A stretch of DNA of 64,000 bases, taken from positions 128,001 to 192,000 of the forward strand of contig CAWHHI010000009.1 of assembly GCA_963829055.1 (NCBI GenBank), given 5' to 3'. Shown here one piece after another: positions 3,457 to 48,393 of the stretch. Below the pieces are notes generated by a model. It was given only the letters and a program-made list of their open reading frames with translations, ran no database searches and was not told the origin of the DNA. The stretch's first letter is position 1, and each line of letters starts with the position of its first letter. A program made the position numbers and the translations under genes. The stretch comes from an uncultured Gemmatimonadaceae bacterium (GTDB lineage Bacteria; Gemmatimonadota; Gemmatimonadetes; Gemmatimonadales; Gemmatimonadaceae).

Positions 3457-3681
3457 CCTGCGGTCGATGGGGACCCTGCTTGGGCGGCGAATATGCGTCG
3501 ACGCGTTCGCGCAGGCCAGCCGTACGCCAAGCATGCGCGGGCACGAATGGACGACCAGTCTTGACGGTTGTGACTCACGAACGGATCTTCGCCTCGAAAC
3601 GATCGGCCGACGCGCACTCCCCTTCGTTCGTCGCGACGTGTGTCGCGCCGACTCGCTCCCACTCAGTGCCAGGAGCATCCT

Positions 3682-6792: not shown

Positions 6793-6803
6793 GGAGCCGA
6801 CCG

Positions 6804-8096
6804 ATGACCTCACGAATTTCCCGGCTCCCCATAGCCGCCGCACTGACGGTGACGTTAGGCTGCTCGTCGCTGACCGACGTGGACTCGCCGGACGTGGTTC
6901 AGCCGGAGCAGCTGAACAATGCCGCCGGTGCCGAGGCGCTGACGACGGGTGCGCTCGCTTCGATCATGTCGCCGTTCATGACCTTCGCGTACAACACGTC
7001 GGTCTTCAGCGATGAGATGAAGCTCGCGACGGCGTTCAATTCGTTCGCGGACATCGACTTCCGAACGCAGTCGCTGACCTTCAACGAATACGGCCCGACC
7101 CTGATGCACCGGGTTCGGACGCAGACGCAGCAGGCCATCGACTCGCGCAAGGAGTTCGCACCAACGCCGCGCGCTCGCATCGGCCAGCTCTTCGCCACGA
7201 AGGGGCTCGCCGAGCTGTTCCTCGGCGAAACGAGCTGCAATGGCACGCCGCTCACCGACATCGAAGGGACGGACCCGATCTTCAGTGGCCCGTTGACGAG
7301 CGACAGCATCCTGAAGGTTGCGATCACGAACTTCGACTCGGCGGTCGTGTACGCGGCGGACAGTGCGCGCGTGCTCAATCTGGCGAAGGTCGGACGCGGC
7401 CGCGCGCTGCTGGATCGCGGGCAGTACGCGCAGGCAGCAGCGGCGGTGGCCGGCGTGCCAACCAACTACGTGTACAATGCCGAAGCGACGTTGGCGGTTG
7501 CGAACCAGATCAACCTGATCTGGAATGGCAACAATCTGAAGACGGCAACAGTAGCTGAACGCGAAGGCGGCAACGGGTTGAACTTTGTGACCGCCGCCGA
7601 TCCGCGCGTCCCCACGATCGCAAATGGCGTGGGCGGCGACGGCGTGACGAACGTCTTCATCTTCGGGAAGTATTCCGGGCAGGCATCCCCGATCCCGATG
7701 GTCACCGGCGTCGAAGCGCGGCTGATCGAGGCAGAAGCCGCGTTGCAGGCGAACCGAAACGATACGTCGCCCACTGGCAACGGCTGGTTAGGCATCCTGA
7801 ACAACCTGCGAGCGACGGCGATCACGCCAGCGATGGCTCCGCTGGCGGATCCGGGAAGCTTCGATGCACGCGTGAACCTGCTCTTCCGCGAGCGCGCGTT
7901 CTGGTTGTACGGAACGGGTCACCGCATGGGCGATCTGCGTCGCCTCCTCCGACAGTATGGTCGCGCCGAAGCGCAGACGTGGCCGAAGGGACCGTACAAA
8001 GGTGGGGTCAGCTACGGGGACGAGGTGGTGTTCATCCTCACACTCTCCGAGCAGGCGAACCCGACCGTACGGACGTGCACCGACAAGAATCCGTAA
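6804..8096 (+). CDS. SusD/RagB-like lipoprotein
   Basis: Lipobox TLGC; EARLIEAEA and LFRERAFWLYGTGHRMGDLRR motifs; directly after the SusC-like gene, GAGGAG RBS. Confidence 0.88.
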   Translation: MTSRISRLPIAAALTVTLGCSSLTDVDSPDVVQPEQLNNAAGAEALTTGALASIMSPFMTFAYNTSVFSDEMKLATAFNSFADIDFRTQSLTFNEYGPTLMHRVRTQTQQAIDSRKEFAPTPRARIGQLFATKGLAELFLGETSCNGTPLTDIEGTDPIFSGPLTSDSILKVAITNFDSAVVYAADSARVLNLAKVGRGRALLDRGQYAQAAAAVAGVPTNYVYNAEATLAVANQINLIWNGNNLKTATVAEREGGNGLNFVTAADPRVPTIANGVGGDGVTNVFIFGKYSGQASPIPMVTGVEARLIEAEAALQANRNDTSPTGNGWLGILNNLRATAITPAMAPLADPGSFDARVNLLFRERAFWLYGTGHRMGDLRRLLRQYGRAEAQTWPKGPYKGGVSYGDEVVFILTLSEQANPTVRTCTDKNP

Positions 8097-16366: not shown

Positions 16367-16711
16367 TAGCGCCCCGGATCGGTGATCCGCGAAGCAGCAG
16401 CAGCAGGAGCAGGAGAGCGTGCAATGGGTCGACCCACTCGTCCCCATCTGTCAGTACCAAACGCTTCGTTGGTGTGCCCGCACGTGCGCGCGCTCATCGC
16501 GCCGCGTGGCCGGAGCCCACCTCCCCGTGAAAGCGGACTCGACGGGCCACAGGCAAACGGCCCGTGTCCGACGCGAGCGTCCGGACGACACCCCGACGTT
16601 CGTGCCTAACGTGGACAAGGCATTGCCACTGACGACCGGTACGCGTACGCGAACGAGGGATGCAGGTGCAGTTGAGAAACCCCATTCCCAGTTGTGTGGA
16701 AGGAGGATGTG

Positions 16712-19597
16712 ATGCACGATCGCGGTCATTCGGGATTGATAGTCAGAACGGCGGTAGTACTCCTTGCTTGCGTGGCGCCACCCGCACTCGCCCAGACGGG
16801 ATCCGTCACCGGCACCGTGGTAGAGGCCAGCGGCGGCCGCCCCATCGTGGGTGCACAAGTGTCCGTGAGAGGCACCGGTCTCGCGACACAAGCCGGTGAA
16901 GGCGGCAGGTTCACGATCGCGAACATCCCAGCGGGGCCGCACGTCATTGCGGTTCGTCAGATCGGGTTCGCCGCCGGGGAGAAGCCGGTCACGATCGTAG
17001 CCGGCCAACGAGACACGGTCGACTTCGCGCTCGCCGCGCAGGCGGTCTCATTGCACGAGGTCGTCGTCACGGGGACAGCGACGGCGACGGAAGTTCGCAA
17101 AGTCGGAAACTCGGTGGCGAGCCTGAACGTGACCGACATCGCCGAGAAGGCACCGATTCTCAGCGTCGATCAGTTGCTCAAGGGACGCACCGCCGGCGTG
17201 ATCATGAACGTCACGCAGGGGTCGGTCGGCACATCGGGACAGATCAAGATTCGCGGTACGAAGTCGATCTCGCTGCCGAGCGATCCCGCGCTCTACATCG
17301 ATGGCGTGAAGGTCAACAACGCCGAAGACCGCGCGTTCTTCATCGGCGGCGCCGGGATCAACCGCATCGGGGACATCAACCCCTCCGACATCGACCGCAT
17401 CGAGGTGGTACGCGGTGCGGCGGCCGCAACGCTCTATGGGACGCAGGGCTCGAACGGGGTGATCCAGATCTTCACGAAGAGGGGGCGCACCGGAAAGCCG
17501 GAGTGGCTCTTCGAAGGAGAAGGCGGCTTCGAGCGGGCACCAACGAATCGCTTCCCGGGGCGGCTCTGGACGCAGTTCACCGGGCCGAACGGGTTCCAGG
17601 CTCACGACCCGAAGGAGATCGTGGGCAACGGCCGCTACGAACGCTATCTGGCGCAGGTGTCCGGGGGCGGGGAAGCCGTCACCTACTTCACTTCGCTGAA
17701 CTATCAGGGCCAGGAGGCGTCGATCGCGCCTGACGCGAACTGGAGCCACGTGCTCGGATCGCGCGTCAATCTGAATGCGATCCTGACGCCGAAGTTGTCG
17801 CTGTCGGCGCGGACCGCCTTCACGTTCAACAAGCTCCGTATCAACGACACCGACAATGCGCTGCACGGTCTCTACTCGCAGGTCGTGGCCGGCCTGCCCT
17901 ATAGCGCGGCGCCGGACCGGCTGTGGGGGGAACGGTTCGGCAATTTCTACGCGAATCAGACCGTCGAGAACATCCGGCACACGCTGCGGAACACGACCGG
18001 CATCACGGGCGAGTGGCGGCCGCGCACGAACTTCACGCATTCGGCCACGTTAGGCATCGACTGGTTCGACGATGAGTTCCTGAAGTACTTCCCGTACGCC
18101 TATCAGGGGTCGGGGAACAAGCTCGGCTCCAAGACCAACGCCACCCGCTCGTTCCGCGAGGTCACGTTCGACTACAAGACGTCGCTCAGCAACACGCTCG
18201 CGCAGTGGGCGACGTCCGAGCTGTCGGTGGGTGCGCAGGGCGACTTCCAGTCGCAGAACCGCGTGACGGGGATCGGGACGGACTTCCCGGCTCCCGGCGT
18301 GCGCACCGTTTCCGCCGCGGCGACGCGAACCGCCACGGAGGATCGTCTCGAGACGACGAACGCCGGCCTGTTCCTTCAGGAGACGGTCGGACTGTGGGAC
18401 AAGGTGTTCGTCACGGGCGGACTGCGGATCGATGGCAACTCGGCGTTCGGAAACGATTTCAAGTACCAGACGTACCCGAAGGCGTCGCTCGCGTACTCGA
18501 TCTCGGACGAGCGCTTCTGGCCCACCTCGGTGGTGCCCACAATGAAGTTGCGCGTGGCGTACGGCACGTCGGGGCAGGCGCCCGCGCAGTTCGCCGCCGA
18601 CCGCACCTACACACCGACGTCGGCCCAAAACGGCCAGCCCGCTGTCACTCCCAACAACCTCGGCGATCCGAACCTCGGGCCGGAAACATCGAGCGAGCTC
18701 GAGTTCGGCTTCGACGCGGGATTTCTGGGTGATCGCGTCGGTATCGAGTTCACTGGATACTACCAGACCACTAACGACGCGCTGATTCGCAAGCCGGAGC
18801 CGCCGTCGCTCGGCTTCCTGAATTCGCAGCTGACGAACATCGGTCAGACGAAGAGCCACGGGATCGAGCTCGCCGTTAACGGGTTCCTCCTCCGCCGAAA
18901 GGACATGGAGTGGAGCTCGCGCGTGAACTTCGCGACGTTCACGAGTGAGATCACCGACATGGGCGGAGTCGCGCCGTTCTTCGTGAACGATGCGCGCATC
19001 GTCCAGGGCTACCCGGTCAACGCGATCTGGCGCATCCCACTGCAGAGTTGGGACCCCGTCACGCGACGGCACACCGCCGCGATCGACCGTGTGTTCGCCG
19101 GTTCCATCGATCCGAAGTGGTTCGGTTCACTCTCGACCAACTACCGGCTCGGCCGCTTCACGGTCACCGGCATGGCCGACTTCCAGGGCGGCAACAAGAA
19201 GATCGACTTCTCGCACTACTGGGACACGCGGGTCCGATCCGGCGACCACTACCTGTCGCTCGTCGAGAAGCCGACGGGAAAGCCGACGCCCGCTGCGGAC
19301 TCGCTCGTCGACTACGTGAACACGATCGGCAGCACGGTATTCGTCGAACCGGGGGACTTCATCTCGCTGAGCGAGCTGGCGCTGAGCTACAGCATCCCTG
19401 ATGGGTTGATCCGCAGCACCGGATTCCGGGGAGCGAGCCTGCGCCTCTCCGGCCGCAACCTCTACCTCTGGACGAAGTTCCCCGGCGTGGATCCGCGGTT
19501 GGCCTGGCAGGGCAACGTCCCGGTGGGCGGTAGCTCGGACTTCGATTCTCCGCCGGTACCGCGAGTCTTCCTCATCACCGTGCGGGCGTCCCGATGA
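16712..19597 (+). CDS. SusC/RagA-like TonB-dependent transporter
   Basis: AQTGSVTGTVV, IDRIEVVRGAAAATLYGTQGSNGVIQIFTKRG, GDPNLGPETSSE; GGAGG RBS. Confidence 0.93.
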   Translation: MHDRGHSGLIVRTAVVLLACVAPPALAQTGSVTGTVVEASGGRPIVGAQVSVRGTGLATQAGEGGRFTIANIPAGPHVIAVRQIGFAAGEKPVTIVAGQRDTVDFALAAQAVSLHEVVVTGTATATEVRKVGNSVASLNVTDIAEKAPILSVDQLLKGRTAGVIMNVTQGSVGTSGQIKIRGTKSISLPSDPALYIDGVKVNNAEDRAFFIGGAGINRIGDINPSDIDRIEVVRGAAAATLYGTQGSNGVIQIFTKRGRTGKPEWLFEGEGGFERAPTNRFPGRLWTQFTGPNGFQAHDPKEIVGNGRYERYLAQVSGGGEAVTYFTSLNYQGQEASIAPDANWSHVLGSRVNLNAILTPKLSLSARTAFTFNKLRINDTDNALHGLYSQVVAGLPYSAAPDRLWGERFGNFYANQTVENIRHTLRNTTGITGEWRPRTNFTHSATLGIDWFDDEFLKYFPYAYQGSGNKLGSKTNATRSFREVTFDYKTSLSNTLAQWATSELSVGAQGDFQSQNRVTGIGTDFPAPGVRTVSAAATRTATEDRLETTNAGLFLQETVGLWDKVFVTGGLRIDGNSAFGNDFKYQTYPKASLAYSISDERFWPTSVVPTMKLRVAYGTSGQAPAQFAADRTYTPTSAQNGQPAVTPNNLGDPNLGPETSSELEFGFDAGFLGDRVGIEFTGYYQTTNDALIRKPEPPSLGFLNSQLTNIGQTKSHGIELAVNGFLLRRKDMEWSSRVNFATFTSEITDMGGVAPFFVNDARIVQGYPVNAIWRIPLQSWDPVTRRHTAAIDRVFAGSIDPKWFGSLSTNYRLGRFTVTGMADFQGGNKKIDFSHYWDTRVRSGDHYLSLVEKPTGKPTPAADSLVDYVNTIGSTVFVEPGDFISLSELALSYSIPDGLIRSTGFRGASLRLSGRNLYLWTKFPGVDPRLAWQGNVPVGGSSDFDSPPVPRVFLITVRASR

Positions 19598-19641
19598 TGA
19601 TCAATCCCTCAACGAGCCCTCGCTGCACAGAGGATCACGTC

Positions 19642-20886
19642 ATGACGCTTGAATCCCCGATTCGATCCCCGATTCGATCTCCGAAGGTCGTGCGACGCCT
19701 GCTTGGCTTCCTCTCGCTGGCGCTCACGTTAGGCGCCTGCAAGGATATCCTCGAGGTGAGCAACGAGCAGGACATTCTCGACCAGAACCTCGACTCGCCC
19801 GAAGCGGTGACGCCGCTCATGAACGGCGTGATCGGCGACTATGCGCTCGCCTACGCGTATTCGATCGACATCGTCGGGCTGTTCGGGCAGGAGCTCATTC
19901 ATACCGGCTCGTTCCCGACGTGGCGTGAGGTGGAGAGCGGGATCGGCACGCGCCCCAGCGCGGAGGCCAACACGGTCTACCGGAACGCCTCGCGTGCGGT
20001 CTGGGTGGCTGACACCGCCGCGGTCCGCTTTCGCAAGGCGCTGCCTGATGCCGAGAAGCGCTTCGAGCTGGCGACCGTGCTGGTGTGGGGCGGATTCGCC
20101 CACTTCCAGCTGGCCGACAACTTCTGCGAGGTCACGTTCCACGGCGGTCCACCGGTCACGCCGAAGGCCGCGTACGAGCGCGCCAGGGGAATCTTCGACG
20201 ACGCGCTCACGGTGGCCACCGCGGCCAACCGGGCCGAGTTGCGGAGCGCGGCGTTAGGCGGCCGGGCCAGGGTGAAGCTCATGCTCGGCGATTTCGCCGG
20301 GGCGCGCGCCGACGCACAGCAGGTCCCGGTGGGCTTCGTGCTCCGCGCACTGTACGGCAATAACACGCGCGAGAACAATGCGGTGGCGATCAATGCCACC
20401 ACGCTGATTCGCCGGGAGGCCGGCGTGAACCCGCGTTTCTACAAGGGCGATCCGCGTTACAAGACGGACCCGCGCACGTCGTTCCGCGACAAGGGCGATA
20501 CGGCGAAGGGTCCCGATCCGACGCGACAGTTCGTGGAGCAGCTCAAGTACCCGGCCCGGGATACGCCGATTCCGGTGTTCACATGGCAGGAGGCGCGCTT
20601 GATCGAGGCCGAGGCGGAGATCCGGTTGAACAACCCGACGCGCGCGGTGACGTTGATCAACCTGGTGCGCGCCGCGGCGAACCTTCCGGCGTACACGGGG
20701 CCGGCGACCCAACAGGCGGTGCTGGACCAGCTCATCTACGAGCGATCAGCGGAGCTGTGGCTTCAGGCGCAGAGTCTCAACGACTGGCGGAGGTTCAATC
20801 TCACGTTCACGCCGCAGCCGAGAGACAAGTGCTTCGAGATCGGCCAGTCGGAGTGGGAGACCAACCCGAACCTCGGCGCGAAGTAG
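19642..20886 (+). CDS. SusD/RagB-like lipoprotein
   Basis: Lipobox LGAC; EARLIEAEA, INLVRAAANL, ERSAELWLQAQSLNDWRR. Confidence 0.88.
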   Translation: MTLESPIRSPIRSPKVVRRLLGFLSLALTLGACKDILEVSNEQDILDQNLDSPEAVTPLMNGVIGDYALAYAYSIDIVGLFGQELIHTGSFPTWREVESGIGTRPSAEANTVYRNASRAVWVADTAAVRFRKALPDAEKRFELATVLVWGGFAHFQLADNFCEVTFHGGPPVTPKAAYERARGIFDDALTVATAANRAELRSAALGGRARVKLMLGDFAGARADAQQVPVGFVLRALYGNNTRENNAVAINATTLIRREAGVNPRFYKGDPRYKTDPRTSFRDKGDTAKGPDPTRQFVEQLKYPARDTPIPVFTWQEARLIEAEAEIRLNNPTRAVTLINLVRAAANLPAYTGPATQQAVLDQLIYERSAELWLQAQSLNDWRRFNLTFTPQPRDKCFEIGQSEWETNPNLGAK

Positions 20887-27670: not shown

Positions 27671-30349
27671 CTACTCCGTGGCGAGGGCACGCGCGGGCGT
27701 CACGCGCATCGCGCGCCGCGCCGGAACGAAGGTGGCGACCAACGCGACGCCAAGCAACGTCGCCACGACCATCAACAGGGTCGCCGGGTCCTGCGTCGCC
27801 ACGCCGTACAGCTGATCGCGCAGGAGGCGCGCGGTCCCCAGCGAGAGCAGGCTCCCCACCAGCGCGCCCCACACGATCGGCCTCAGCCCTCGGCTCAGCA
27901 CGAGGCGCCAGATGTCGCCCGGTGTTGCCCCGAGTGCCATCCGGACGCCGATCTCTCGAGTCCGTTGGCTCACGAAATAGCCGACCACGCTGTAGACCCC
28001 GACGCTCGCCAGCGCTAGCGCCAGCACACCGAGCGTCGTGAGCAACAGCGTGTTGAACCGCGTGGTTGCCACGGATTTCGAGAGCACGTCTTCCATCGTG
28101 CTCTGGTCGACGAGCGGGAGCGACGGGTCGATTCGCATCACGGCCGCCTGCAGCGCGCGCGTCAGAGTCTCTGGCGGTGGCACTGTTCGCGCGACGAGGA
28201 CCAGCGAGCGCGATGTCGCGCGCCACATGCCTGGCGAGGTCTGCGTGAACGGCATGTACAGTGTTGGTGTCGCGGCCAGGTTCAACCCCGCGCTGTGCAC
28301 GTCCGCCACCACGCCGACGACTGTCATCCAGTTCGGCGTGTTGCGGTCGTCGCGCATGGCGTCGAACCGCTTGCCGACGGCTCGCTGGCCGGGCCACAGT
28401 GCCCGCGCCAGTGACGTGCTCACGATCGCGACCGGAATGGCGCCGGCGTCGTCCGTGCGCGCGAAGTCGCGTCCATCGAGGAGCGACATGCCCATCACCG
28501 CGAAGTAGTCCGGCGACGCGTACCGGATGTCCACGTCCACCTGTTCGTCCGGTAGTTGCTTCCCGTCCGGCAGGATGCGCGTGGAGAGGATGCCACCCGC
28601 CAGCGGCACCGCCGACACCAGCGCCGCGCGCTGAACGCCCGGGACTTCCGCAGCCGCGTCCCGGATCTGCTGGTACGTCTGCGTCGTGCGCGCCGCGTCG
28701 GCGTAGCGCACCGCGGGCAACACGAGACGTCCCGTCATGACGTGCGACGCCGTGAACCCTGGATCGACACGCTGCAGGTGCCACGCGGTCCGGATCAGGA
28801 GACCGGATCCAACGAGCAGCGTCATGGCCAGCGCCACCTCGGCCGCCACGAGCAGGGCGCGGAGCCCCTCGCGCGCCGCGCCGGCACTCGAACCGCGGGC
28901 GCCGTCACGCAGCGCTGATTGCAGCGCGGGGCTCGCGCTGCGGACCGCCGGCACGAGCCCGACGAGCACGCTGCTCACGAGCGCCACGCCTAACGTGAAC
29001 AGCAGGACGACGCCGTTCACCCGCGCCTGATCGACGCGCGGCACGTCCTCCGGCGCGAGCGCGACGAGCCCTTTCACCAGACCGAACGCGACGATCACAC
29101 CGAGCACGGCGCCGCCGAGTGCGAGGACGAGACTCTCGACGAGCAGTTGACGGACGATGCGGCCGCGCCCGGCACCTAACGCCGCACGGATCGCCAGCTC
29201 GCGCGACCGGACGGTGCCGCGCGCCAGCAGGAGATTCGCGACGTTCACGCAGGCGATGAGCAGCACGAACCCCACGGCGCCGGACAGCACGAGCAGTCGT
29301 TCGCGGAAGCCGCCCACCACGCCGTCGATGTAGCGTCGCACCACGGCGCCCATCGCGGGCGAGGCGCCGGGCGTCCGCGCCGCCACGAGCTGAATGGCGG
29401 CGCGTGCCGCGTCGGTGGCCTGGGCGAGCGTCACGCCTGGCGCCAGGCGCGCCGTCAGGCGCAGCCAACGCCCGCCTTCCGTGGTCAACTGCTGGGTGGT
29501 CAGCCGTCTCGGCGCCCACAGATCGTTGTCGGTACCCGTCGCGTCGAACGCCGCGGGCATCACGCCGATCACCGTGTACTGCTCGTCATTGAGTCGGATC
29601 GTGCGTCCGACGACGGACGTGTCCGAGTTGAAGTGACGTGTCCAGAGCCGGTGGCTCATGAGCACGACATGCGGCGCCCCCGGCACATCGTCGCTCGGAA
29701 GGAAGCCGCGACCGAGCACCGGAGGGACGCCAATCACGCGAAAGAAGTCGCCGGTGACGAGAACGCCATTGACGAGCTGCGGCGCTCCCATCCCGGTGAG
29801 CGTGAACCCTCCACCGCCACTGGCGGCGGCGACGTACGCGAACGCGTCGCGCCGATCACGGAGCGCCGCGAACTCCGCGCCTGACGCGATCTCTTCGATT
29901 ACGCCGCGCCGCGTCGGCTGCACCTGAACGACGCGATCCGCGTCGGCGAACGGCAGCGGATGCAGCACGACGGCGTAGAGCACACTGAACACCGCCGCCG
30001 TGGCCCCAATGCCAAGTGCCAGCGTGAGCGTTGCGGTGGCGGTGAAGCCGCGCGCACGGCGAAGCTGACGCAGCGCGAACGTGAAATCCTGCTTCAACTC
30101 GCTGAGGTACTCCGCGCGTGACCGGTTGCGGTCGCGTTGCCGCCCATAGTGACGGCACTCCGCAGCGACGACGGCGAAGTCGCCGAAGCGTCGAACGGCC
30201 TCGGCCCGAGCATCGTTAGGCGCCATGCCGTCGGCGATCAGCATCTGGATCACCATGTCGACGTGGAACGCGAGCTCCGTGTCGACCTCCTCCTCGAGGC
30301 GCGGGCGCTTGAGGAAGGACCATGGCGAGCGGCGAGGGGCGCGGCTCAT
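27671..30349 (-). CDS. Duplicated MacB/FtsX-type permease (ADOP-like)
   Basis: TLALGIGATAAVFS, LLIACVNVANLLLAR, RELAIRAALGAGR, QRTREIGVRMALGA; no ATPase gene adjacent. Confidence 0.92.
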   Translation of the reverse strand: MSRAPRRSPWSFLKRPRLEEEVDTELAFHVDMVIQMLIADGMAPNDARAEAVRRFGDFAVVAAECRHYGRQRDRNRSRAEYLSELKQDFTFALRQLRRARGFTATATLTLALGIGATAAVFSVLYAVVLHPLPFADADRVVQVQPTRRGVIEEIASGAEFAALRDRRDAFAYVAAASGGGGFTLTGMGAPQLVNGVLVTGDFFRVIGVPPVLGRGFLPSDDVPGAPHVVLMSHRLWTRHFNSDTSVVGRTIRLNDEQYTVIGVMPAAFDATGTDNDLWAPRRLTTQQLTTEGGRWLRLTARLAPGVTLAQATDAARAAIQLVAARTPGASPAMGAVVRRYIDGVVGGFRERLLVLSGAVGFVLLIACVNVANLLLARGTVRSRELAIRAALGAGRGRIVRQLLVESLVLALGGAVLGVIVAFGLVKGLVALAPEDVPRVDQARVNGVVLLFTLGVALVSSVLVGLVPAVRSASPALQSALRDGARGSSAGAAREGLRALLVAAEVALAMTLLVGSGLLIRTAWHLQRVDPGFTASHVMTGRLVLPAVRYADAARTTQTYQQIRDAAAEVPGVQRAALVSAVPLAGGILSTRILPDGKQLPDEQVDVDIRYASPDYFAVMGMSLLDGRDFARTDDAGAIPVAIVSTSLARALWPGQRAVGKRFDAMRDDRNTPNWMTVVGVVADVHSAGLNLAATPTLYMPFTQTSPGMWRATSRSLVLVARTVPPPETLTRALQAAVMRIDPSLPLVDQSTMEDVLSKSVATTRFNTLLLTTLGVLALALASVGVYSVVGYFVSQRTREIGVRMALGATPGDIWRLVLSRGLRPIVWGALVGSLLSLGTARLLRDQLYGVATQDPATLLMVVATLLGVALVATFVPARRAMRVTPARALATE

Positions 30350-30358
30350 AGCGCTTCC

Positions 30359-30685
30359 TTACGCGGGGAGCAGCACGGGCGTAATCGCGGCGATGAACGT
30401 CGCGAGCTCGCGCGTCTCGGCGGTGAGATGTCTCCGTCCCTTGGGCGTGATCGCGTAGAACTTCGCGCGGCGCCCCTGGTCGGTGACGCCCCACTCGGCG
30501 TCGATCCACCCGTCGCGCTCCATACGGTAGAGGGCGGGGTAGAGCGAGCCTTCCTCGACGCGGACGACGTCGTCGGTCCGCTCGGCGATCCACCGCAGGA
30601 TGCCGAACCCGTGGCGCGGGGCGAGCGTCAGCGACTTGAGCACGAGTGCGTCGAGCGTGCCGTGCAAGCGGTCGGTAGCGGGCAT
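30359..30685 (-). CDS. PadR-family transcriptional regulator
   Basis: GTLDALVLKSL, HGFGI, EEGSLYPALYRME, RRAKFYAIT. Confidence 0.93.
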   Translation of the reverse strand: MPATDRLHGTLDALVLKSLTLAPRHGFGILRWIAERTDDVVRVEEGSLYPALYRMERDGWIDAEWGVTDQGRRAKFYAITPKGRRHLTAETRELATFIAAITPVLLPA

Positions 30686-30698
30686 TGATGGCAACTGT

Positions 30699-30712
30699 CC
30701 TAGATGTCTAGG
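30699..30712. promoter_or_regulatory. Putative PadR operator
   Basis: CCTAGA-TG-TCTAGG inverted repeat 13 bp before the PadR start; related to 45351-45367. Confidence 0.55.
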
Positions 30713-30766
30713 GTAGAGTTGCCTGCGCGCACGCTGCCTGTCAAGAGAATCACGCTGTTGACCATC

Positions 30767-31032
30767 CTGATGCCTGATACCTCGTACTGACGCGACTGAG
30801 TGCTGAACGACTGGCCATGCCGTGCATCCACTCGGCGGCCTGGCCAGTACCAAGTGCGTCAGCCACTGCTCAGTAGCGAGTTGTCAGGCATCAGGTCCCG
30901 TATCCGCCGGCTTGGGTCGCGCGCTTGGCGTCGCGCTTGAGTCGCGGCGGACTCCCGACTGGGCTCGGAGACTGATGCCTGACACCTCGTACTCAACGCT
31001 GGCGTGCTGAGTCACTGGCCAAGCCCTGCATC
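30767..31032. repeat. Three ~55-60 bp repeats in alternating orientation
   Basis: CTGATGCCTGA(T/C)ACCTCGTACT...ACTGGCCA at 30767 and 30972; inverted copy at 30841-30895. Confidence 0.75.
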
Positions 31033-31106
31033 GGACTTTCTGAGCATCGCGCAAACCAAACAGCCGGGAGTCCGTTCAATAGGTGGATATTCCGTAGCCC
31101 AGTCAT

Positions 31107-31835
31107 ATGTTCAGCCGGCCGAGCAGCTCGTCCGGCGCAGTGAAGGTCCGCGTTCTCGCGACCGACAACCCCAGGGTGCTTCCTCCGGAACTCCAGGCCC
31201 TACTGGATGGCACCGACGCCGCGTCTCGAGACGCGGCGTGGGCCGCGCTCGTGCGGTCACATAACGGCCTGCTCCTTCACGCCGTGCGTTCGGTCTTCCC
31301 GCAGCACGACGCCGCGATGGACGCGTACACGCTCGTGCTCGAACGACTGCGTGAGAACGACTTCCGCAGGCTGCGCACCTACGTCGCCGATGGCAGGAGC
31401 GCGTTCAGTACGTGGCTCGTGGTCGTCGCGCGCCGGTTGTGCCTCGACCACCACCGCCAACGCTACGGCCGCACGCCGCGCGGCGAACACGACGTTGCTG
31501 CCGCCGAGCAGCAGCGAGCTGCGCGACGACGCCTTCTCGATCTCACCGCGTCTCCGCTCGACGCGGCGGACATCGTCGACGACGCCAGCGGCTTGGCAGA
31601 CCGCGAGCTGAGATCGGCCGAGCTTCGTCACGCGCTCGACGTCGCACTTGCCGACCTGACGCCCGCCGACCGCGTCCTCCTCAGGATGCGTTTCGAGGAC
31701 GAGCTCTCCGCGCAGGAGATCGCGACGGCGCTGGGCTGGCCAACGCCGTTTCATGTGTATCGCCACCTCAACGCGCTTTACGCGGAGCTGCGCTGCCGAC
31801 TCGTCGCGCGCGGCGTGATGAGCAGCGCACCGTGA
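31107..31835 (+). CDS. ECF RNA polymerase sigma factor
   Basis: Region 2 (AWAALVRSH...FSTWLVVVARRLCLDHHR) and region 4 (LADLTPADRVLLRMRFEDELSAQEIA). Confidence 0.9.
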   Translation: MFSRPSSSSGAVKVRVLATDNPRVLPPELQALLDGTDAASRDAAWAALVRSHNGLLLHAVRSVFPQHDAAMDAYTLVLERLRENDFRRLRTYVADGRSAFSTWLVVVARRLCLDHHRQRYGRTPRGEHDVAAAEQQRAARRRLLDLTASPLDAADIVDDASGLADRELRSAELRHALDVALADLTPADRVLLRMRFEDELSAQEIATALGWPTPFHVYRHLNALYAELRCRLVARGVMSSAP

Positions 31836-31902
31836 GCGCGCGCGATCCTGCAAGAGGTGCTGGCGGGTCCGTTTCACAAAGCATCGAAACGGAGGTCCGC
31901 CG

Positions 31903-32545
31903 ATGACGGAGGTCCCAATGCCAGACGAGGACACAAACATCGCACATCTCAGCGCCGAGCGGCTGGCGTCGTACATCGACGGCAACCTGACCCCGGCCGA
32001 GCATAACGCGGCGCTCGCGCACTTCGACGACTGCGCGGACTGCCGGCGCGAGATGACCGATGCGCGTCGCGTCATTGCCCTCGCACCTCCGGCGCGTGTC
32101 GGAACCTGCGCGAGCCCCGACGGCCTCGCGGCGCGTGCGAGTCTGGGTCGCCGCAGCGCTCGCGGCGGTGGTCGTCTTCGCCGTCGTCCCGACTGTGCTG
32201 CGCAACAGGAGTGGCCCTGACGGCGCCACTCGCGGACCGGATCGCCTTCCTCAATCGGAGACTGTTTCCCAGTTGGCGACTGTAGCTCCGGTGGACGACG
32301 GTGCCATTACACCGGCAAGCGACTCGTTCGTGTGGCGGGCGGCGAGCGCGGACGCGGAATATCGGTTGCGGATCATGGACGCGACGGGCGGGATCGTGTG
32401 GAGCACGAGCACGGTCGACACTTCCGCTACGCTGCCCGCGAATCTGCGCCTGCCACAGGGGAGCGAGTACTTCTGGTCCGTGGACGCACTCCTCGCTGAC
32501 GGTCACTCGACGACGACGCGCGTTCATCACTTCACCATCCGGTGA
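31903..32545 (+). CDS. Zinc-finger (zf-HC2) anti-sigma factor with TM helix and extracytoplasmic beta domain; frameshift near 32070-32110
   Basis: HLSAERLASYIDG...HFDDCADC, then WVAAALAAVVVFAVV TM and FVWR...YRLRI...YFWSVDA. GGAGG RBS. Confidence 0.85.
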
Positions 32546-35536
32546 TGCGCGCACTCTCGGCGAGTCTCGTGGCGAACGCTCTGACAGGCGTTCTACTGGT
32601 CGCCGCGTGTGCGGCCCCGCCCGATGCCACGACCACCGCGCCGGTCGGGACCACACCAGCGGTGAGTGGGCAGGGCGTGCCGGTCGCACTTCCTTCCGGC
32701 GTCGATTCGTTGCTGCGACATGCCGACTCGGTCTACCTGCGCGCGCCCGACAGCTCGACGGCGTTGTTCCAGATCGCGCTCGATCGCGCGAGCGCGTCGC
32801 GCGATTCGGCCGGCATCGCGCGAAGCCTCACCGGGCTGGGACAGGCGGCACGACACGCCGGAGACTTCCGCGCGTCGCGCGACCTGAGCGAGCGTGCGCT
32901 CGCGCTGAAGCTGCGACTCGGCATGCGCGCTGATCTCTTCCGATCCTACAACGCGCTCGGCCTGCTCGCGCGCGATGAGGAAAGGCTCAGCGACGCATCC
33001 GCGATTCTTCCGAAAGCGGCTGAGGCGGCCCGGACCATCAACGATTCCGTAGGCCTGGCCAAGGTGCAGGTCAACACCGGGCTCGTGCTGAGCGACCTCG
33101 GAGATTTCGACGGGGCGCGCGCGGCGTCGCTCGCTGGACGCGATGGGGCGCGAGCGGTGGGCGACACGGTCACGTTAGGGAGGGCGCTGACCAATCTCGC
33201 GGCCCTCGACATCACACTTGGCAATCCACTCCCGGCGGTTGCCACGCTCGACGCGGCGCGGCGTCTCTTCCGTGCAGCTGGCGACTCGATCGGCTGAAGT
33301 GAATGCCCTGGGTCAGGTCGCTGCAGCGTACGACGCGTTGGGCGACCCGCAGCGCGCATTCGCGGCGCTGGATAGTGCGTTAGGCATGGCGCGCCGGCTG
33401 GCGATGCGGGTCGAGGAGGCGGCCGATCTCAGGATCCTCGCCGACCTGTACCGGGATGCCGGGTATTACCAGCACGCGCTCGACGTGTACGCACGCGCCG
33501 CCGCGCTGAACGACTCGCTCGGCAAGCCCGAGGAGCGCGGTGATCTCCTCCGCAGCGAGGCGCAGGTGTACTTCGCCCTCGGCGGAACGGCGCGCGCTCG
33601 TGGACGGGCGTCGGAGGCGTTAGGCGTTCATCAGAAGGGCGGCTTTCGCTACCCGGAGCTCGTCGACCATCTGCTGCTGGCGGAGCTGGCGCAGCACGAG
33701 GCGCGATCATCCGAAGCAGAGGCGCATCTGCGGTCGGCGCGCGCCTTGTCCGCGGCGCTCGCGGCCAGCACCGCGAGCGCGCAGGTGGCCCTGTCTGAGG
33801 CGCGCGTTGCCGACGACGCGGGTCAGTCCGAGCGTGTGCTGCGCGTGCTCGAGCAGTCTCGGGGCGTCCTCGCCCAGGCGGGGAGCGGAGCCGAGGCGGA
33901 AGCGTCGGCGCTTGCCGCGCGCGCGTATGCGCGACTCGGACAGCTCGACGCGGCGGCAGTCGCGGGGCGTCAGGCGGTCGATGCCGTCGAGCGCGTGCGC
34001 AAGAATTATGGATCGGGCGAGCTCAGGGCATCGTACGCGTCAGGCAGGGCGTCCGTGTACGCGGACCTCGTCGTCGTCCTGCTCAAGCTCGGCCGAACCG
34101 CCGAAGCCTTCGAGGTTGCCGACGCTGCGCGCGGTCGCGGGCTGCTGGAGCATCTGGCGACGTCGCGCACCGACGCTCGAACGGCGAGTGGTGCAGCGCA
34201 AACGCTCGCCGAATCCGAGCTGCTTCTGCGGCGCATCGACGAACTGATGGCCAAGCTGCAGGTGCGCGAGCAGACGGTCCCGCGAGAGCGCACGCCAGGG
34301 TACGTGGCGACCACGAAGGACCTCAACGACCGCCTTCGCCGGGCGCGCACCGAGTACGAGGAGATCCTCGCCCGACGCACGCCGGACGTGGCGGCGGCCA
34401 GGGCGCTGATCGGCGGCGGGCGTGCCGATGTTCGCGCCGTGCAGGCGAGCCTCGAGCCGGGTGAGCTCCTGCTCGAGTACTTCGTGACGCCGGCGCGGCT
34501 GTACATCTTCGCCGTCACGCGCACGGGCCTGACGAGTCTGACGAATGAGGTGACCGCGGACGGTCTCGCGGCGCGCGTGCGTGTCGCGCGCGACCTCATG
34601 GGGGACCGCGCCGCCGATGACGCGCGAACCCGTCGCGTGCTCGGCGCGCTTCACGCGATTCTGCTCGGGCCCGTCGCGGCATCGGGTGCGTTGCGCGACG
34701 TCCGCCGGATCATCGTCGTGTCGCACTCCGTGTTGACCTACCTCCCGTTCGCGGCCCTGGTGGATACCGCCACCGGCCGCTACGTGACGGAGGACTATGC
34801 GGTGGCGCACGTGCCGTCGGCGGCGGCGCTCCCGGTGCTTCGCGCGTCGGGGTCACGCGCAGTGCGCACGGTGGCAGCGCCGGCCGAGGTGTTCGCGCCG
34901 TTTCCCGATGCGCTGCCGGCAACGCCGGCGGAGGCGCGGACCTTCCGGCGGTCGGTGCCCGGAGCAGTGGCGCACGTGGGGAGTGCGGCGACGGAGGGTC
35001 GGCTGCGCAGCGCGCTCGCGTCGGGCGCCGTCGTGCACGTGGCGACGCACGGGGTGATGAATGCACTCAACCCGCTGTTCTCGCGGCTCGAGCTGGCGAC
35101 GAACGAGGCCGGTGCCAGCGACGACAACGGCCGGCTCGAGGTGCACGAGCTGCTCGAGCTTCACTTCGAGAGTCCGCTCGTCTTCCTCTCCGGCTGCGAG
35201 ACCGGGCTCGGCGCGTCGTGGTCGACGCAGTTCGAGACGGGGCAGGATTACACGACGATCGCGCAGGCGCTGCTCTTCGCCGGCGCGCGCAACGTGGTGG
35301 CAACGCTCTGGCGCATCGACGACGAAGGCGCCGCGGAGTTCGCGAGGAAGTTCTATGCTGCGCGGCAGACGCTCGGAGCGCCCGAGGCACTCGCGCGGGC
35401 GCAGCGCGAGATGATCACCGATCCGCGCTGGCGAAGTCCGTACCTGTGGGCGGCGTACGAGGTCAGTGGTGGAGGTCTCGAGGGGTTCCGTCCGTCACAG
35501 GCGTCAAAGATCAAAGTCTCGTTAGGAGTCCGTTGA
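32545..35536 (+). CDS. Lipoprotein-signal TPR + CHAT (caspase-like) protease; frameshift near 33295
   Basis: LLVAAC lipobox; TPR-like repeats (ARSLTGLG, SYNALG, ALTNLA); CHAT motifs LPFAAL, HVATHG (His ~35048), LSGCETG (Cys ~35195), VVATLWRIDD, PYLWAAY. TGATG overlap with the anti-sigma gene. Confidence 0.9.
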
Positions 35537-35613
35537 ACCGAGGTGATCGCGACTCGACCGAGTTGACTCGACGCACCCGAACCGACACACCAACGCACAC
35601 GAGGGAGTGCATC

Positions 35614-36678
35614 ATGCCCCGCAGATCGGACGGTTTCGCTTCACCTCATGTCAGGCCGGGTGTCGTTTCCGCTCGGCGGGATGCTGTTGCTGTGCGTGAT
35701 GGCTGCGTGCGTTGCCGATGAGCCTACGGCGTCGCGGCCGACTCCGGGTGTGAGCCTCGGGAAAGCGCCGCCACCGTCTGTCACCGTCACGTCCACCGAC
35801 CCGACGTACGCCTTTCAGGGCGACTCGGTGCTGACGGTGCACGTGAAGGGAATCGGGATTTACCGCGGGCGCACATACGTCGTGGCCGGTCAACGGCGAT
35901 ACGACGCACGTGCACGAGATCAGCACGACGTACGTGAGCCCGACGGAGGTCGTCTCGACGATCAAGGTGGACCTCAACGCGCCGACGGCGCTGTACGATG
36001 TCGTGGTGACGCTCGTTGGTGGGAAGAAGGGAGTGGGCGCGGAGCTGTTTGCCGTCAAGTCAGTGAACGAGCGCCAGCAGTTGCCGATCCCGATCGCGGT
36101 GACCGTGGACGACGCGGGCGCGCTCGGAGCCGTACAGGATTCGGAGCGACGGATTGGGTGAGTATGTCGACGGACAGCCGGGATGACGGCGTTTATCGAC
36201 CAATTCGGGAATCTGCAGATCTCGCCTAACAACGGCCAAGCGACGACGCCGGCACAGCGCAGCCTGGTCTTCGACTTCAGCGTGCCGGCCGACCCGCTCA
36301 ACACGTATCGCCCCGATGTGTCGGGTCAGACCAACTTCAAGATCCTGACGAACAATGTCGGGCTACCCGAGGATTCAGGACCTCGGGGTGAATGGCATTC
36401 CGTCTTCGGGGTGCTATCGCCTGACGTTCTCGTTCCGGAACGTTACGACGCACTATCCAGCGTCGATTTCAACACGAGCATCAACGCGCAGGCTGCTTTC
36501 GTGCTCATCACGCGAACCAGCGCTTCGACGTGGACTGTCGTGCCAGGATGCGTCGTGCGGCGCGCATCCGACCTGGGGCGCGTTCAGGAGCCAGGATCTT
36601 CACGAGCAAGAACGCGCCGGTCGTAGCCCCGTGGGAACTACAGCCTGCCGTTCTCGATACGGATTCGCGAAGTTGTAG
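35614..36678 (+). CDS. Lipoprotein with N-terminal IPT/Ig-like domain; multiple frameshifts
   Basis: LLLCVMAAC lipobox; VTSTDP..GDSVLTVHVKG..YDVVVTL..GKKGVGAELFAV; pieces spread over several frames. Confidence 0.6.
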
Positions 36679-45368: not shown

Positions 45369-45701
45369 ATGACCGGCCGCGAACCGATTCCCCAGGGCAC
45401 GCTGGATCTGCTCGTGCTCAGCACCCTGGACCAGCGCCCCGAGCTCCACGGCTTCGAGATCTCGGAGGCGATCGGCCGGCGGTCCGGTGATGTCCTCCAG
45501 GTGGAGGAGGGTTCGCTCTATCCCGCGCTGCAGCGCCTGATGGTCAACGGCTGGATCAAAGGGAAGTGGGGCCGGACCGACGAGAATCGCCGCGCGCGCT
45601 ATTACCACATCACCGCCGAAGGCCAGCGCGAGCTGGCGCGGAAGCTCTCGAGCTACCAGCGCGTGAGCGGCGCGATTGCCGCCGTCCTCCAGCCAGCCTA
45701 A
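45369..45701 (+). CDS. PadR-family transcriptional regulator
   Basis: QGTLDLLVL, HGFEI, EEGSLYPALQRL, NRRARYYHIT. Confidence 0.93.
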   Translation: MTGREPIPQGTLDLLVLSTLDQRPELHGFEISEAIGRRSGDVLQVEEGSLYPALQRLMVNGWIKGKWGRTDENRRARYYHITAEGQRELARKLSSYQRVSGAIAAVLQPA

Positions 45702-45705
45702 CGCC

Positions 45706-48393
45706 ATGTTTCTCGCCGTCTGGTGGCGCCGCCTGTGGCTCTTCCTCAATCGCGATCGCGTCCGTCGGGAGCTCGAGGAAGAGATGCAGCTCCACCGCGA
45801 TCTTCGAGCGCGCGCGATGGAACGAGGCGGCGCCGCCCCAGTGGACGCCGCCGCTGCCGCGCGCCGCCGCTTCGGGCACGAGGTCACGCTGGCCGAGCGA
45901 AGCCAGGAGAGCTGGGGATTCCAGCGCGGTGATGAGCTGCGGTGGAACGTGCGCTATGCGTTGCGCCGACTGGCGAATCGCCCGGCATACGCGGCGACGA
46001 TCGTCCTGGTCATGGGCCTCGGCATCGGGGCGACGACCGCGATGTTCAGCGCGGTGGATGCGGTGATGCTTCGCGCGCTGCCGTTCCGCGAGCCGAGCCG
46101 GCTGGTATCGCTGCCAATCGTCGAGCTCCCCTTCGCTCCTGGTCCGGGTAAGCCCGCGGAAGTGCGGGCGACCGTCGATCTCGACGGCGCGGCGGCCATG
46201 CCGGACGTGTTCTCTTCGGTAGCCGCATTCGCGGCGGGGCGGCTCAACCTCCCCGATGTCGAGCGCCCACTCCGCCTTCGAGCGGCGGTAGTGACGGACG
46301 GCTTCTTCCGAACGTTAGGCGTCGAGCCGATGGTCGGACGGACATTCGTGAAAGAGGAGACGGTTCCCGGCGCGGGGACAGTCGTGGTCCTGTCGGACGC
46401 GCTGTGGCGGAGGCAGTACGGCGCGCGAGACATGCTCGGCGAAACCATCCTGTTGGACGATCAGCGATACCAGGTCATCGGCGTCATGCCGCCGGGCTTC
46501 TCCTTTCCGCGGGAGAGCGATCTCTGGATCCCGATGTCGGTCCCACTTACGCCCGCCACGTTCGCGGCCTTCGGTGGGATGCTCAACTGGGAGGTGATGG
46601 CGCGGCTGACGCCGGGCGTAGAAATGACGGCGGCCAACAGCCGGCTCCTGCAGCGCTGGGCGCAGGCGATCGACGGTCGGGATCGGAGGGATTCACGCGA
46701 GGACAGGGAAGGGAGGCTCGCCTACCTGCGGAGCAGCGGGGCGGTGCGCCCGCTGCAGGCCTATCTCGCCGGAACGCGTGCGACGGCCCTTCTGGTGCTG
46801 CTGGGCGCGACCGGTCTCCTGCTCCTGATCGCCTGTGCCAACGTCACCAATCTCCTGCTGTCCGACGCCGCGAGCCGCACGCGGGAGATGGCGCTCCGAA
46901 CGGCGCTCGGCGCCTCTCGCGCGCGAGTCTTCCGTCAGGTGCTGACCGAGAGTGTGATGCTCGCGTTAGGCGGGATCGGGGCCGGACTGCTGCTGGCGCC
47001 GGTGGTGCTCCGCGCGCTGCAGGCGCTGATGCCGCCGGAGCTCGCGGGCGTCGTCGAGCCACAAATCGACTGGCGAGTGCTGGGCTTCGCGTCGTCGCTC
47101 GGTCTCGTGACCGGGATCGGCTTCGGCCTCTGGCCGGCGCGTGCCGCCAGCCGCACCGATCCCGGAGAGACACTCAAGAGCAGCGGAACTCTGCTGGCGA
47201 CTGGCCGGCGTAGCGCCCGTGGCCGGCGGATGCTGATCGTCGTCGAGGTCGCGCTGTCGCTCATGCTGCTGGTCGGATCGGGGCTCTTGCTTCGGAGCTT
47301 TTCCAAGCTGATGCGCGTCGAGCGGGGGATGGATACAGCGCACGTGGCCTCTCTCGAGCTGTCCTTCGCCGGCAAGACGCATAACGCGACCCGCCTCGCC
47401 CGCATCGAGGCGATGCTCGAGCGGTTGCGTCGGTCTCCGGGTGTCGAGCGCGCCGCCGCGGTGAGTGAGCTGCCCCTGAGTAGCGGTGAAGGGTACGCGG
47501 AGCCTCTCGACCCCGTGGATGGCGGGGCCGCGCCGCCGAGCGGGTCCCGTGGCGCGAGATACCTGCACGTGTCGCCGAGCTACTTCGGCACTCTCGGGAT
47601 CGCCTTTCGTAGTGGGCGGGACTTCACACCGCGCGACGATTCGCTCGCCCCACCGACGGTCATCATCAACGAGACGCTCGCCCGACAGTGGTTTCCGAAC
47701 GTCGATCCGGTCGGGCGCCAGCTCCTCGGGCACCCCGGTCCCGGGCGCAACGTGCATTACACCGTGGTCGGCGTGGTGGCTGACGTGCGCGAGCAGGATC
47801 TGGCCAGCGATGTGCCTCCTCAGCTCTATCACCCCATGTACCGGGTCACGCCGACAGCCTTCGCGCTGGTCGCGCGTGGCCACGCAGAACCTGCGGCGCT
47901 CTTCGCCGCGCTCCAGAACGCGGTGCGTGCGGTGGACCCGAGTCAGGCGGTGGGCCGAGCGCGGATGATGGACCAGGTGGTGCGGGAATCTGTGGCGCCG
48001 CAGCGGACGAACGCACTGCTCATCAGCCTGTTCGCCGCGTTAGCGCTAGTCCTGGCCGCGTTAGGTGTCTATTCCGTCGTGGCGCACGGCGTTGCGCAGC
48101 GTGGCCGGGAGTTCGGAATCCGCACCGCGCTCGGCGCAACGGGCGGCAACTTGCTGGTCATGGTCTCGCGGGAAATCTTCGTCGTAGTCGCGTTAGGCAT
48201 CGCGATCGGGCTTGCGGGCGCATGGGCTGGGGCGAGAGTGCTCGAGGCGTCGGTCTATGGTATCACCGTTCATGACGCCACGACGTTCGTGATCGGTCCC
48301 GCGACGCTGGGCATCATTGCCATGACGGCGGCGGTGCTGCCGCTGCGGCGAGTCTTCCGGGTCAATCCCGTGGAGGTGATCCGGAGCGAGTAG
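45706..48393 (+). CDS. Duplicated MacB/FtsX-type permease (ADOP-like)
   Basis: LGIGATTAMFS, LLIACANVTNLLL, REMALRTALGASR, REFGIRTALGA. Confidence 0.92.
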   Translation: MFLAVWWRRLWLFLNRDRVRRELEEEMQLHRDLRARAMERGGAAPVDAAAAARRRFGHEVTLAERSQESWGFQRGDELRWNVRYALRRLANRPAYAATIVLVMGLGIGATTAMFSAVDAVMLRALPFREPSRLVSLPIVELPFAPGPGKPAEVRATVDLDGAAAMPDVFSSVAAFAAGRLNLPDVERPLRLRAAVVTDGFFRTLGVEPMVGRTFVKEETVPGAGTVVVLSDALWRRQYGARDMLGETILLDDQRYQVIGVMPPGFSFPRESDLWIPMSVPLTPATFAAFGGMLNWEVMARLTPGVEMTAANSRLLQRWAQAIDGRDRRDSREDREGRLAYLRSSGAVRPLQAYLAGTRATALLVLLGATGLLLLIACANVTNLLLSDAASRTREMALRTALGASRARVFRQVLTESVMLALGGIGAGLLLAPVVLRALQALMPPELAGVVEPQIDWRVLGFASSLGLVTGIGFGLWPARAASRTDPGETLKSSGTLLATGRRSARGRRMLIVVEVALSLMLLVGSGLLLRSFSKLMRVERGMDTAHVASLELSFAGKTHNATRLARIEAMLERLRRSPGVERAAAVSELPLSSGEGYAEPLDPVDGGAAPPSGSRGARYLHVSPSYFGTLGIAFRSGRDFTPRDDSLAPPTVIINETLARQWFPNVDPVGRQLLGHPGPGRNVHYTVVGVVADVREQDLASDVPPQLYHPMYRVTPTAFALVARGHAEPAALFAALQNAVRAVDPSQAVGRARMMDQVVRESVAPQRTNALLISLFAALALVLAALGVYSVVAHGVAQRGREFGIRTALGATGGNLLVMVSREIFVVVALGIAIGLAGAWAGARVLEASVYGITVHDATTFVIGPATLGIIAMTAAVLPLRRVFRVNPVEVIRSE

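Follow-up and report, generated by a model that had tools for sequence, protein, structure and literature searches.

The window analysed here is a 64,000-nucleotide stretch from an uncultured Gemmatimonadaceae bacterium (assembly GCA_963829055.1, contig CAWHHI010000009.1, positions 128,001 to 192,000). At 31107-36678 it holds four genes on the plus strand, encoding a sigma factor of the extracytoplasmic function (ECF) type, a membrane-bound zinc-binding anti-sigma (ZAS) factor, a protein of tetratricopeptide repeats (TPR) joined to a caspase-like CHAT domain, and a lipoprotein. Pfam and open reading frame (ORF) analysis confirmed these four co-oriented genes where a preliminary description had placed them. 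Pfam assigns Sigma70_r2 and Sigma70_r4 to the sigma factor (regions 2 and 4 only) and zf-HC2 to the anti-sigma, which carries H-F-D-D-C-A-D-C, one transmembrane (TM) helix and an outer domain resembling fibronectin type III (FN3). The third protein matches CHAT (E 2e-53) and TPR and has the lipobox VAAC, and there is no Pfam match on the fourth gene or on the protein family to which it belongs. The source genome (G000; 7.8 Mb in 20 contigs, 86% complete) contains this cassette three times, on contigs C9 (the window), C8 and C12.

Single extra bases break the reading frames of the anti-sigma, CHAT and lipoprotein genes in the window. Those at 32098 (anti-sigma), 33292 (CHAT) and 35851/35858 (lipoprotein) are absent from short-read contigs of close relatives in 4/4 runs, and that at 35665/35666, in the 5' part of the lipoprotein gene, in 3/3 covering runs. 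The runs come from other strains closely related to the source; the lipoprotein breaks near 36160-36360 lie outside their coverage, and those at 36543-36624 were seen in a single run. Because the short-read contigs lack the extra bases, the tested frameshifts in the anti-sigma, the CHAT and the 5' part of the lipoprotein gene are best read as assembly errors. The C8 paralogue of the cassette (G000:C8:45.7-50.1 kb) is intact, and the C8 and C12 CHATs pass the site of the window's CHAT break in frame. The most likely start of the lipoprotein is the ATG at 35614. The coupling of anti-sigma and CHAT by a TGATG overlap, already described, was seen at 32543-32547, and across the family the CHAT almost always begins at or a few bases from the anti-sigma stop. 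This junction is identical in the short-read contigs of relatives, which argues that the two are separate genes. A fused anti-sigma-CHAT gene split by error was rejected on the unchanged junction and on the CHATs' own export signals; no fused form occurred among 8000 longer candidates, which is weak evidence. A long anti-sigma ORF (L067) was likewise rejected as a fusion, as it results from an assembly gap, and the anti-sigma ORF of L058 (G131:C2), which continues into the first TPRs of the CHAT, is probably a frameshift error.

The gene order is conserved across the phylum. With a cut-off of E ≤ 1e-15 the sigma subfamily was located at 49 places, distributed over 35 of the 401 phylum genomes scanned, with G000 accounting for three of the places; at E ≤ 1e-30 it comprises 448 clusters in a 50%-identity library, and the names on cassette homologues point to Gemmatimonadota. 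The 46 places in genomes other than G000 were all retrieved, among them the identical pair L048 and L049; the sigma gene is followed by an anti-sigma in 43 and by a TPR-CHAT in 40. Four loci could not be evaluated, owing to three contig ends and one assembly gap, so that sigma, anti-sigma and CHAT follow one another in 40/42 evaluable loci from other genomes. An order that recurs this often is not chance, and the synteny survey proposed at the outset thus came out positive. The true synteny exceptions, L074 (G319:C119) and L083 (G149:C71), are orphan members of the sigma subfamily with neither anti-sigma nor CHAT 3' of them; the sigma gene of L083 is followed by one for a Ser/Thr kinase.

In an AlphaFold2 model of the CHAT protein (pLDDT 84, pTM 0.83), some 11 TPR repeats and a coiled-coil insert accompany the CHAT domain, and in structural searches the model comes closest to separase, Csx29 and DdvA. 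The catalytic half superposes on Chaetomium separase with Z 28.3 and an rmsd of 3.3 over 323 residues, the fold matches Csx29 with Z 31-32, and the N-terminal TPRs resemble the peptide receptors Rap/NprR and LGN. The best match of the CHAT profile among Protein Data Bank (PDB) entries is DdvA (8rot, E 2e-11). The His of A[ST]HG, VATHG in the window, aligns with DdvA H862 and the CHG of Csx29, on which ground an invariant His four residues upstream (H835 in L001) was rejected as the catalytic residue. A second His (H870 in L001; LEVHE, 35137-35151 in the window) is invariant in both subfamilies of the family's CHATs (32/32) but not in distant CHATs. The lipobox-bearing subfamily, to which the window belongs and which we call active, keeps catalytic His, Cys and an Asp in 33/33 members and the lipobox Cys in at least 90%. 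The intact His/Cys dyad and lipobox of the preliminary description are borne out in this subfamily, and its extracytoplasmic placing of the CHAT is supported by the export signals, which, judged by eye, are a lipobox in most members and a type-I-like signal in the rest. The Asp, invariant in the family and part of a W-x-x-x-D motif, aligns with WDVTD of separase and is Ser in the Csx29 of S. brodae. It lies 42 residues from the catalytic Cys, against 41 in human separase, and on this spacing it may be the counterpart of separase Asp2151/Asp2070. Separase binds the P1 Arg of unstructured substrates through a conserved Asp (PMC10317155), and Arg specificity is listed for several clan CD families (PMC4357240).

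The substrate side of this pairing may lie in the anti-sigma. In the AlphaFold2 model of the intact C8 paralogue (pLDDT 85), the ZAS helices are followed by a TM helix (70-86), a linker modelled with low confidence and a beta sandwich, for which Foldseek gave CopC and FN3 domains as top matches; the HxxxCxxC motif, TM segment and outer beta domain described earlier were all recovered. The linker between TM helix and FN3 domain spans 18-42 residues, and one column of it is Arg in 41/42 aligned anti-sigmas, the exception carrying TTRG three residues off. Among 40 re-aligned linker shuffles the best Arg column reached at most 25 (mean 12), and the best column of any residue 35, with Pro slipping into flanking Pro columns. 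The P2 position before this Arg is mostly Leu, Val, Thr, His or Tyr, a hydrophobic/His bias unlike that of other linker Args. The Arg recurs in 13/14 non-duplicate family anti-sigmas outside the alignment, the remaining one being truncated, and a distant low-GC anti-sigma has YRG. In the C8 model it falls in the part of lowest confidence. G000 has further CHAT loci, L003 (C5:284-289 kb), L004 (C5:327 kb) and L005 (C20:570-574 kb), two of which adjoin a divergent sigma and ZAS anti-sigma with TRG or MRG in the linker.

The fourth gene belongs to a family with a conserved Ig-like domain of about 95 residues ending in KKG[IV]GxE, followed by C-terminal parts that differ widely and fall into 15 groups in a set of 113 homologues: some are TolB-like, HAF/DUF3466 or RCC1, others have no known domain. 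The N-terminal domain may have a TIG-like Ig fold: the ESM Atlas clusters closest to it are TIG (0.82-0.84), which is no more than a lead, and distant matches of the family profile carry PF01833. The C-terminal pieces of the window's lipoprotein had no homologue among the fetched proteins. Every genome locus of the active subfamily that was fetched and has a complete CHAT (29/29) carries a KKGIG lipoprotein, as does the window, and G000 holds exactly three, one per cassette. With a profile built from cassette genes, strong matches (E ≤ 1e-19) were found at 33 places, 31 of them inside cassette loci; of the 401 genomes scanned, 21 have such a match, and all of these are among the 35 that bear the sigma gene. 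A further 18 weaker matches (E ≥ 5e-16), spread over 15 other genomes, probably represent TIG domains of a generic kind. The fourth gene is thus likely to encode a dedicated partner of the cassette. In one clade (L062, L068, L069, L092) it is reduced to mini-lipoproteins of 64-72 residues that end in PRKKGIGTE, which suggests that the motif itself is the functional part. The two residues before GIG are basic in most homologues (KK in 75, KR in 20 and RK in 12 of 120).

By eye, a GCAA-N16/17-CGT motif occurs twice in each G000 cassette, 5' of the anti-sigma and at the 3' end of the CHAT gene before gene 4. As a fixed pattern it was found 5' of the anti-sigma in 30/45 loci (27/42 without G000), against a shuffle mean of 0.8 and maximum of 4, and at the CHAT 3' end in 28/40 (shuffle mean 1.2). 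Six CHAT-end matches in the sister clade described below were discounted as conserved coding sequence, leaving 22/30 active-subfamily loci. Within the CHAT gene the motif is at chance level (3/40), and where partner genes have been relocated upstream of the sigma gene they keep it (4/4). A family-wide promoter before sigma was rejected (3/47 loci, shuffle mean 1.7), and the window's GCAA-N18-CGT at 31051-31075, upstream of sigma, misses the spacing of the motif. A matrix made from 46 sites in other genomes ranks the six G000 sites 1, 3, 4, 5, 7 and 11 genome-wide, the window's promoter 1 being 11 and promoter 2 being 7; the ranking is partly circular, because the training sites were chosen with a pattern first seen in G000. 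We predict that the two sites are sigma-dependent promoters. As the top matches genome-wide are the cassettes themselves, the regulon appears to consist of little more than the cassette. The features are collected in Table 1.

Table 1. Features of the sigma/anti-sigma/TPR-CHAT/lipoprotein cassette, in window coordinates
Feature	Position	Strand	Basis
ECF sigma factor, tight subfamily	31107..31835	+	Pfam r2/r4
Predicted sigma-dependent promoter 1, GCAA-N16-CGT-TTCA, 5' of the anti-sigma/CHAT pair	31850..31878	+	motif statistics
Anti-sigma: ZAS HxxxCxxC, single TM, disordered linker, FN3-like periplasmic domain	31903..32545	+	Pfam, C8-paralogue model
Near-invariant linker Arg (GAT-R-GPD), candidate P1 / S1-docking residue	32231..32233	+	alignment
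Exported lipoprotein TPR-CHAT, separase/Csx29-like	32545..35536	+	Pfam, model, alignment
TPR-CHAT lipobox Cys; catalytic His; catalytic Cys; S1-type Asp	32608-10; 35048-50; 35195-97; 35321-23	+	alignment
Predicted sigma-dependent promoter 2, TCAA-N16-CGT-TGAA, within the 3' tail of the CHAT gene, 5' of the lipoprotein	35511..35539	+	motif statistics
Partner lipoprotein: signal/lipobox, TIG-like Ig domain, variable C-terminal domain; several single-base assembly errors	35614..36678	+	
KKGVGAE, end of the TIG-like domain of the partner lipoprotein	36024-36044	+	

The CHATs without a lipobox form one clade (SH-aLRT 96, in a quick run of the subfamily tree). In 23/23 of its members (L042, L044, L046, L050, L051, L053, L054, L057, L063, L081, L085 and 12 metagenome loci) Tyr, Phe, Leu, Asn or Ser stands in place of the catalytic His, while Cys and Asp are kept, and we regard them as probable exported TPR-CHAT pseudo-proteases that have lost the His and kept the Cys. 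These His-less CHATs carry an L-R-G-P motif of their own in a floppy loop (7/7 in the set A3, 15/23 by pattern); one cassette with a His-less CHAT is at G353:C58. None of the 23 loci has a KKGIG partner; 17/23 have a different lipoprotein with a GGFDP motif in an otherwise unannotated domain, typically followed by Big_5.

We propose that the TPR-CHAT protein acts as a lipoprotein-gated site-1 protease that cuts the anti-sigma after the linker Arg, which would make the cassette a split DdvS/DdvA-like switch; this is the reading we favour, and we give it an even chance of being correct. The ZAS domain would hold the sigma factor, as expected from established ZAS/ECF biology and from DdvA/DdvS. 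The lipid-anchored TPR-CHAT would dock the disordered linker, with its Arg in a separase-type Asp pocket; the conservation of both residues is observed. From the co-occurrence of the two genes we infer that the partner lipoprotein, with its fixed KKGIG TIG-like domain and swappable C-terminal propeller or beta domains, touches and gates the TPR-CHAT, the contact and its sign both belonging to this inference. Cleavage would shed the FN3 domain, and RseP, which G000 encodes (a fragmented match at G000:C16:381.9-383.1 kb), would then cut the TM segment, a step shown so far only for DdvA. The freed sigma would transcribe the anti-sigma and CHAT genes and the lipoprotein gene from the two GCAA-N16/17-CGT sites, closing a feedback loop with a very small regulon. 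The position of the Arg in an unstructured region supports cleavage, since separase sites lie in such regions. The preliminary description had suggested that the CHAT may cut the outer domain of the anti-sigma: the near-invariant Arg provides a plausible scissile residue, the site lies in the TM-FN3 linker and not in the outer beta domain, and a universal form of the proposal is countered by the His-less clade (23/23).

Several observations weigh against this proposal. The His-less clade keeps the sigma factor, the anti-sigma, the linker Arg and the promoter motif, and a His-less CHAT is the only CHAT found in 3/5 genomes checked (95-98% complete), so that the Arg is retained where cleavage by a CHAT is improbable. 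Its primary role may therefore be in docking, with cutting confined to the active subfamily; no other result counts as heavily against the proposal. The S1-type Asp is common in CHATs generally (58/63, including distant ones) and therefore does not tie the enzyme to the anti-sigma as substrate. As the split into active and His-less CHATs is one evolutionary event, the correlation between partner and activity has n = 1 and allows no statistic. In DdvA the H862A and C907A variants still repress, and CHAT autoproteolysis was never observed (PMC11506125). Finally, the lipid anchors may sit in the inner or in the outer membrane.

These points lend some weight to a different role, in which the CHAT is mainly a non-cutting cap, like RseB/MucB or securin, that shields the linker through an Arg-Asp contact, while the partner lipoprotein relays the signal and frees the linker for another periplasmic protease; catalysis, where kept, would serve a second substrate or turnover. 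The His-less clade, with every other part in place and often no second CHAT, fits such a cap; so does its L-R-G-P loop, which could compete for the same pocket, and in DdvA the TPR-CHAT blocks RseP and dyad mutants still repress (PMC11506125). That the window's subfamily has kept all three of His, Cys and Asp in every member (33/33) is nevertheless hard to explain without a substrate, the Cys retained in 23/23 His-less members means that these may not be fully dead, and no other protease is conserved among the annotated genes adjoining the CHAT. We think the cap doubtful, yet the most serious of the competing explanations. It is distinctly improbable that the CHAT is instead an output enzyme, with an ordinary envelope protease freeing the sigma factor and the induced CHAT then cleaving the lipoprotein within the basic KK/KR-G motif, so that its variable C-terminal domain is set free. 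The KKGIG family does accompany only His-intact CHATs, most homologues have basic residues at both positions ahead of GIG, both genes stand behind the sigma motif, and the C-terminal domains are diverse. However, the mini-lipoproteins ending at KKGIGTE have nothing to release, which also weakens the earlier suggestion that the CHAT processes the downstream lipoprotein; the motif closes a folded Ig domain, and the invariant anti-sigma Arg is left unexplained.

A further proposal concerns the signal and is compatible with a site-1 protease: the cassette might be a switch for defence, comparable to the DdvA island and set off by phages or predators, and the lipoprotein its defence effector. Its closest characterised relatives (DdvA, Csx29, SAVED-CHAT) are linked to defence, and its distribution is patchy, at 35/401 genomes. 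Against this, PADLOC gave no match on the cassette proteins, no defence gene was found within the 64-kb window, and the top promoter matches genome-wide are the cassettes themselves; we rate it as highly unlikely. No PADLOC or Cas match was obtained on the cassette or its flanking genes and no Cas1 was found in the 86%-complete genome, in line with the initial reading of a cassette without CRISPR. These searches turned up none of the components of a Craspase module (Cas7-11, Csx30, Csx31, cytoplasmic Csx29), and with its exported CHAT the cassette is not such a module (PMC10028731; bioRxiv 2023.06.23.546230).

More broadly, the family may represent a hitherto undescribed, separase/securin-like class of trans-envelope signalling. 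In it, a modular sensor lipoprotein, composed of a swappable ligand-binding domain and a fixed KKGIG docking motif, would allosterically gate an exported Arg-specific TPR-CHAT that cuts the anti-sigma at one bond, and in the sister lineage the switch would work by Arg docking without catalysis and with another lipoprotein as its partner. We offer this generalization tentatively, and it is clearly less probable than the site-1 protease assignment.

A PadR regulator and a MacB/FtsX permease adjoin the cassette on the minus strand (27671-30853), and a second MacB/FtsX-type permease lies at 45667-48390; such genes are ordinary for the group. Nested direct and inverted repeats of about 270 bp (30766-31032) separate the PadR gene from the sigma gene; the element has many copies of 75-96% identity genome-wide and may be REP/BIME-like or a small non-autonomous element. 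TonB-dependent receptor loci occupy 3574-8093 and 16676-20883, the second followed by a SusD gene, with many peptidases (S9, M20, M13) around.

That a periplasmic TPR-CHAT acts as site-1 protease on an ECF anti-sigma has so far only been proposed, and this split family offers handles that DdvA lacks: separable enzyme and substrate, one predicted scissile Arg bond, a candidate regulator that can be shrunk to a short peptide and a promoter ready for a reporter. In addition, its three copies within a single genome allow specificity swaps, and the His-less clade is a natural control. Should our proposal hold, caspase-like signalling would extend beyond CRISPR and defence to routine sensing at the envelope, in a soil phylum that is abundant yet little studied, and a ligand-gated, Arg-specific protease would be on offer. 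In the limited literature covered, we found no paper on the ECF sigma/zf-HC2/CHAT/lipoprotein arrangement or on CHAT proteins in gemmatimonads, and the main text of a preprint reclassifying ECF sigma factors does not contain the words CHAT or caspase.

The closest known system, which the preliminary description had not named, is DdvS/DdvA of Myxococcus xanthus (PMC11506125, PMC6061681; PDB 8rot), which shares the ECF sigma factor, the ZAS-TM anti-sigma and a periplasmic TPR-CHAT with a His/Cys dyad. There the TPR-CHAT is part of the anti-sigma and lies opposite the linker that follows the TM helix; a CHAT cut in this linker was proposed, and RseP acts once the domain is removed. That site-1 role was said to be untestable until the signal is found (PMC11506125). 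The mapped DdvS promoter motif, GTAA-n16-CGT (PMC6061681), is near-identical in form to the cassette's GCAA-N16/17-CGT. In contrast to DdvA, which is one polypeptide, the cassette CHAT is separate and exported by a lipobox or signal of its own, a small FN3-like domain closes the anti-sigma, the cassette includes a dedicated partner lipoprotein, the motif precedes the anti-sigma and not the sigma gene, and there is no CBASS/CRISPR island. Since it is neither fused nor set in a defence island, the cassette is not a DdvA. The type III-E Craspase (Csx29/Csx30/CASP-sigma) has the same TPR-CHAT fold, and its CHAT was shown to cut a sigma inhibitor, Csx29 cleaving the anti-sigma Csx30 (PMC10028731). 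Csx29, however, is cytoplasmic, is gated by RNA through Cas7-11, cuts after Met/Leu and, in S. brodae, is devoid of the S1 Asp, whereas the cassette CHAT is exported and has no Cas gene. Craspases cleave after Met/Leu and separase after Arg (PMC11506125). Separase (clan CD, family C50, with securin) shares the TPR-like helical arm, the CHAT domain and the WDVTD Asp, and cuts after Arg in unstructured linkers (PMC10317155); it is eukaryotic and nuclear and follows an ExxR consensus, whereas the cassette linker lacks ExxR and shows only the P2 bias. For the partner lipoprotein, Sigma-P/RsiP/PbpP of Bacillus thuringiensis provides a logical model: there the site-1 cut in a membrane anti-sigma is under the control of a co-acting accessory protein, which is also the sensor of the signal (PMC8092216). 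Beyond these systems and the preliminary description, the paired promoter motifs, the near-invariant linker Arg with an S1-type Asp, the KKGIG lipoprotein as dedicated partner and the His-less sister clade are new here, and we regard the cassette as a real, conserved and unstudied variant of the DdvS/DdvA-type switch.

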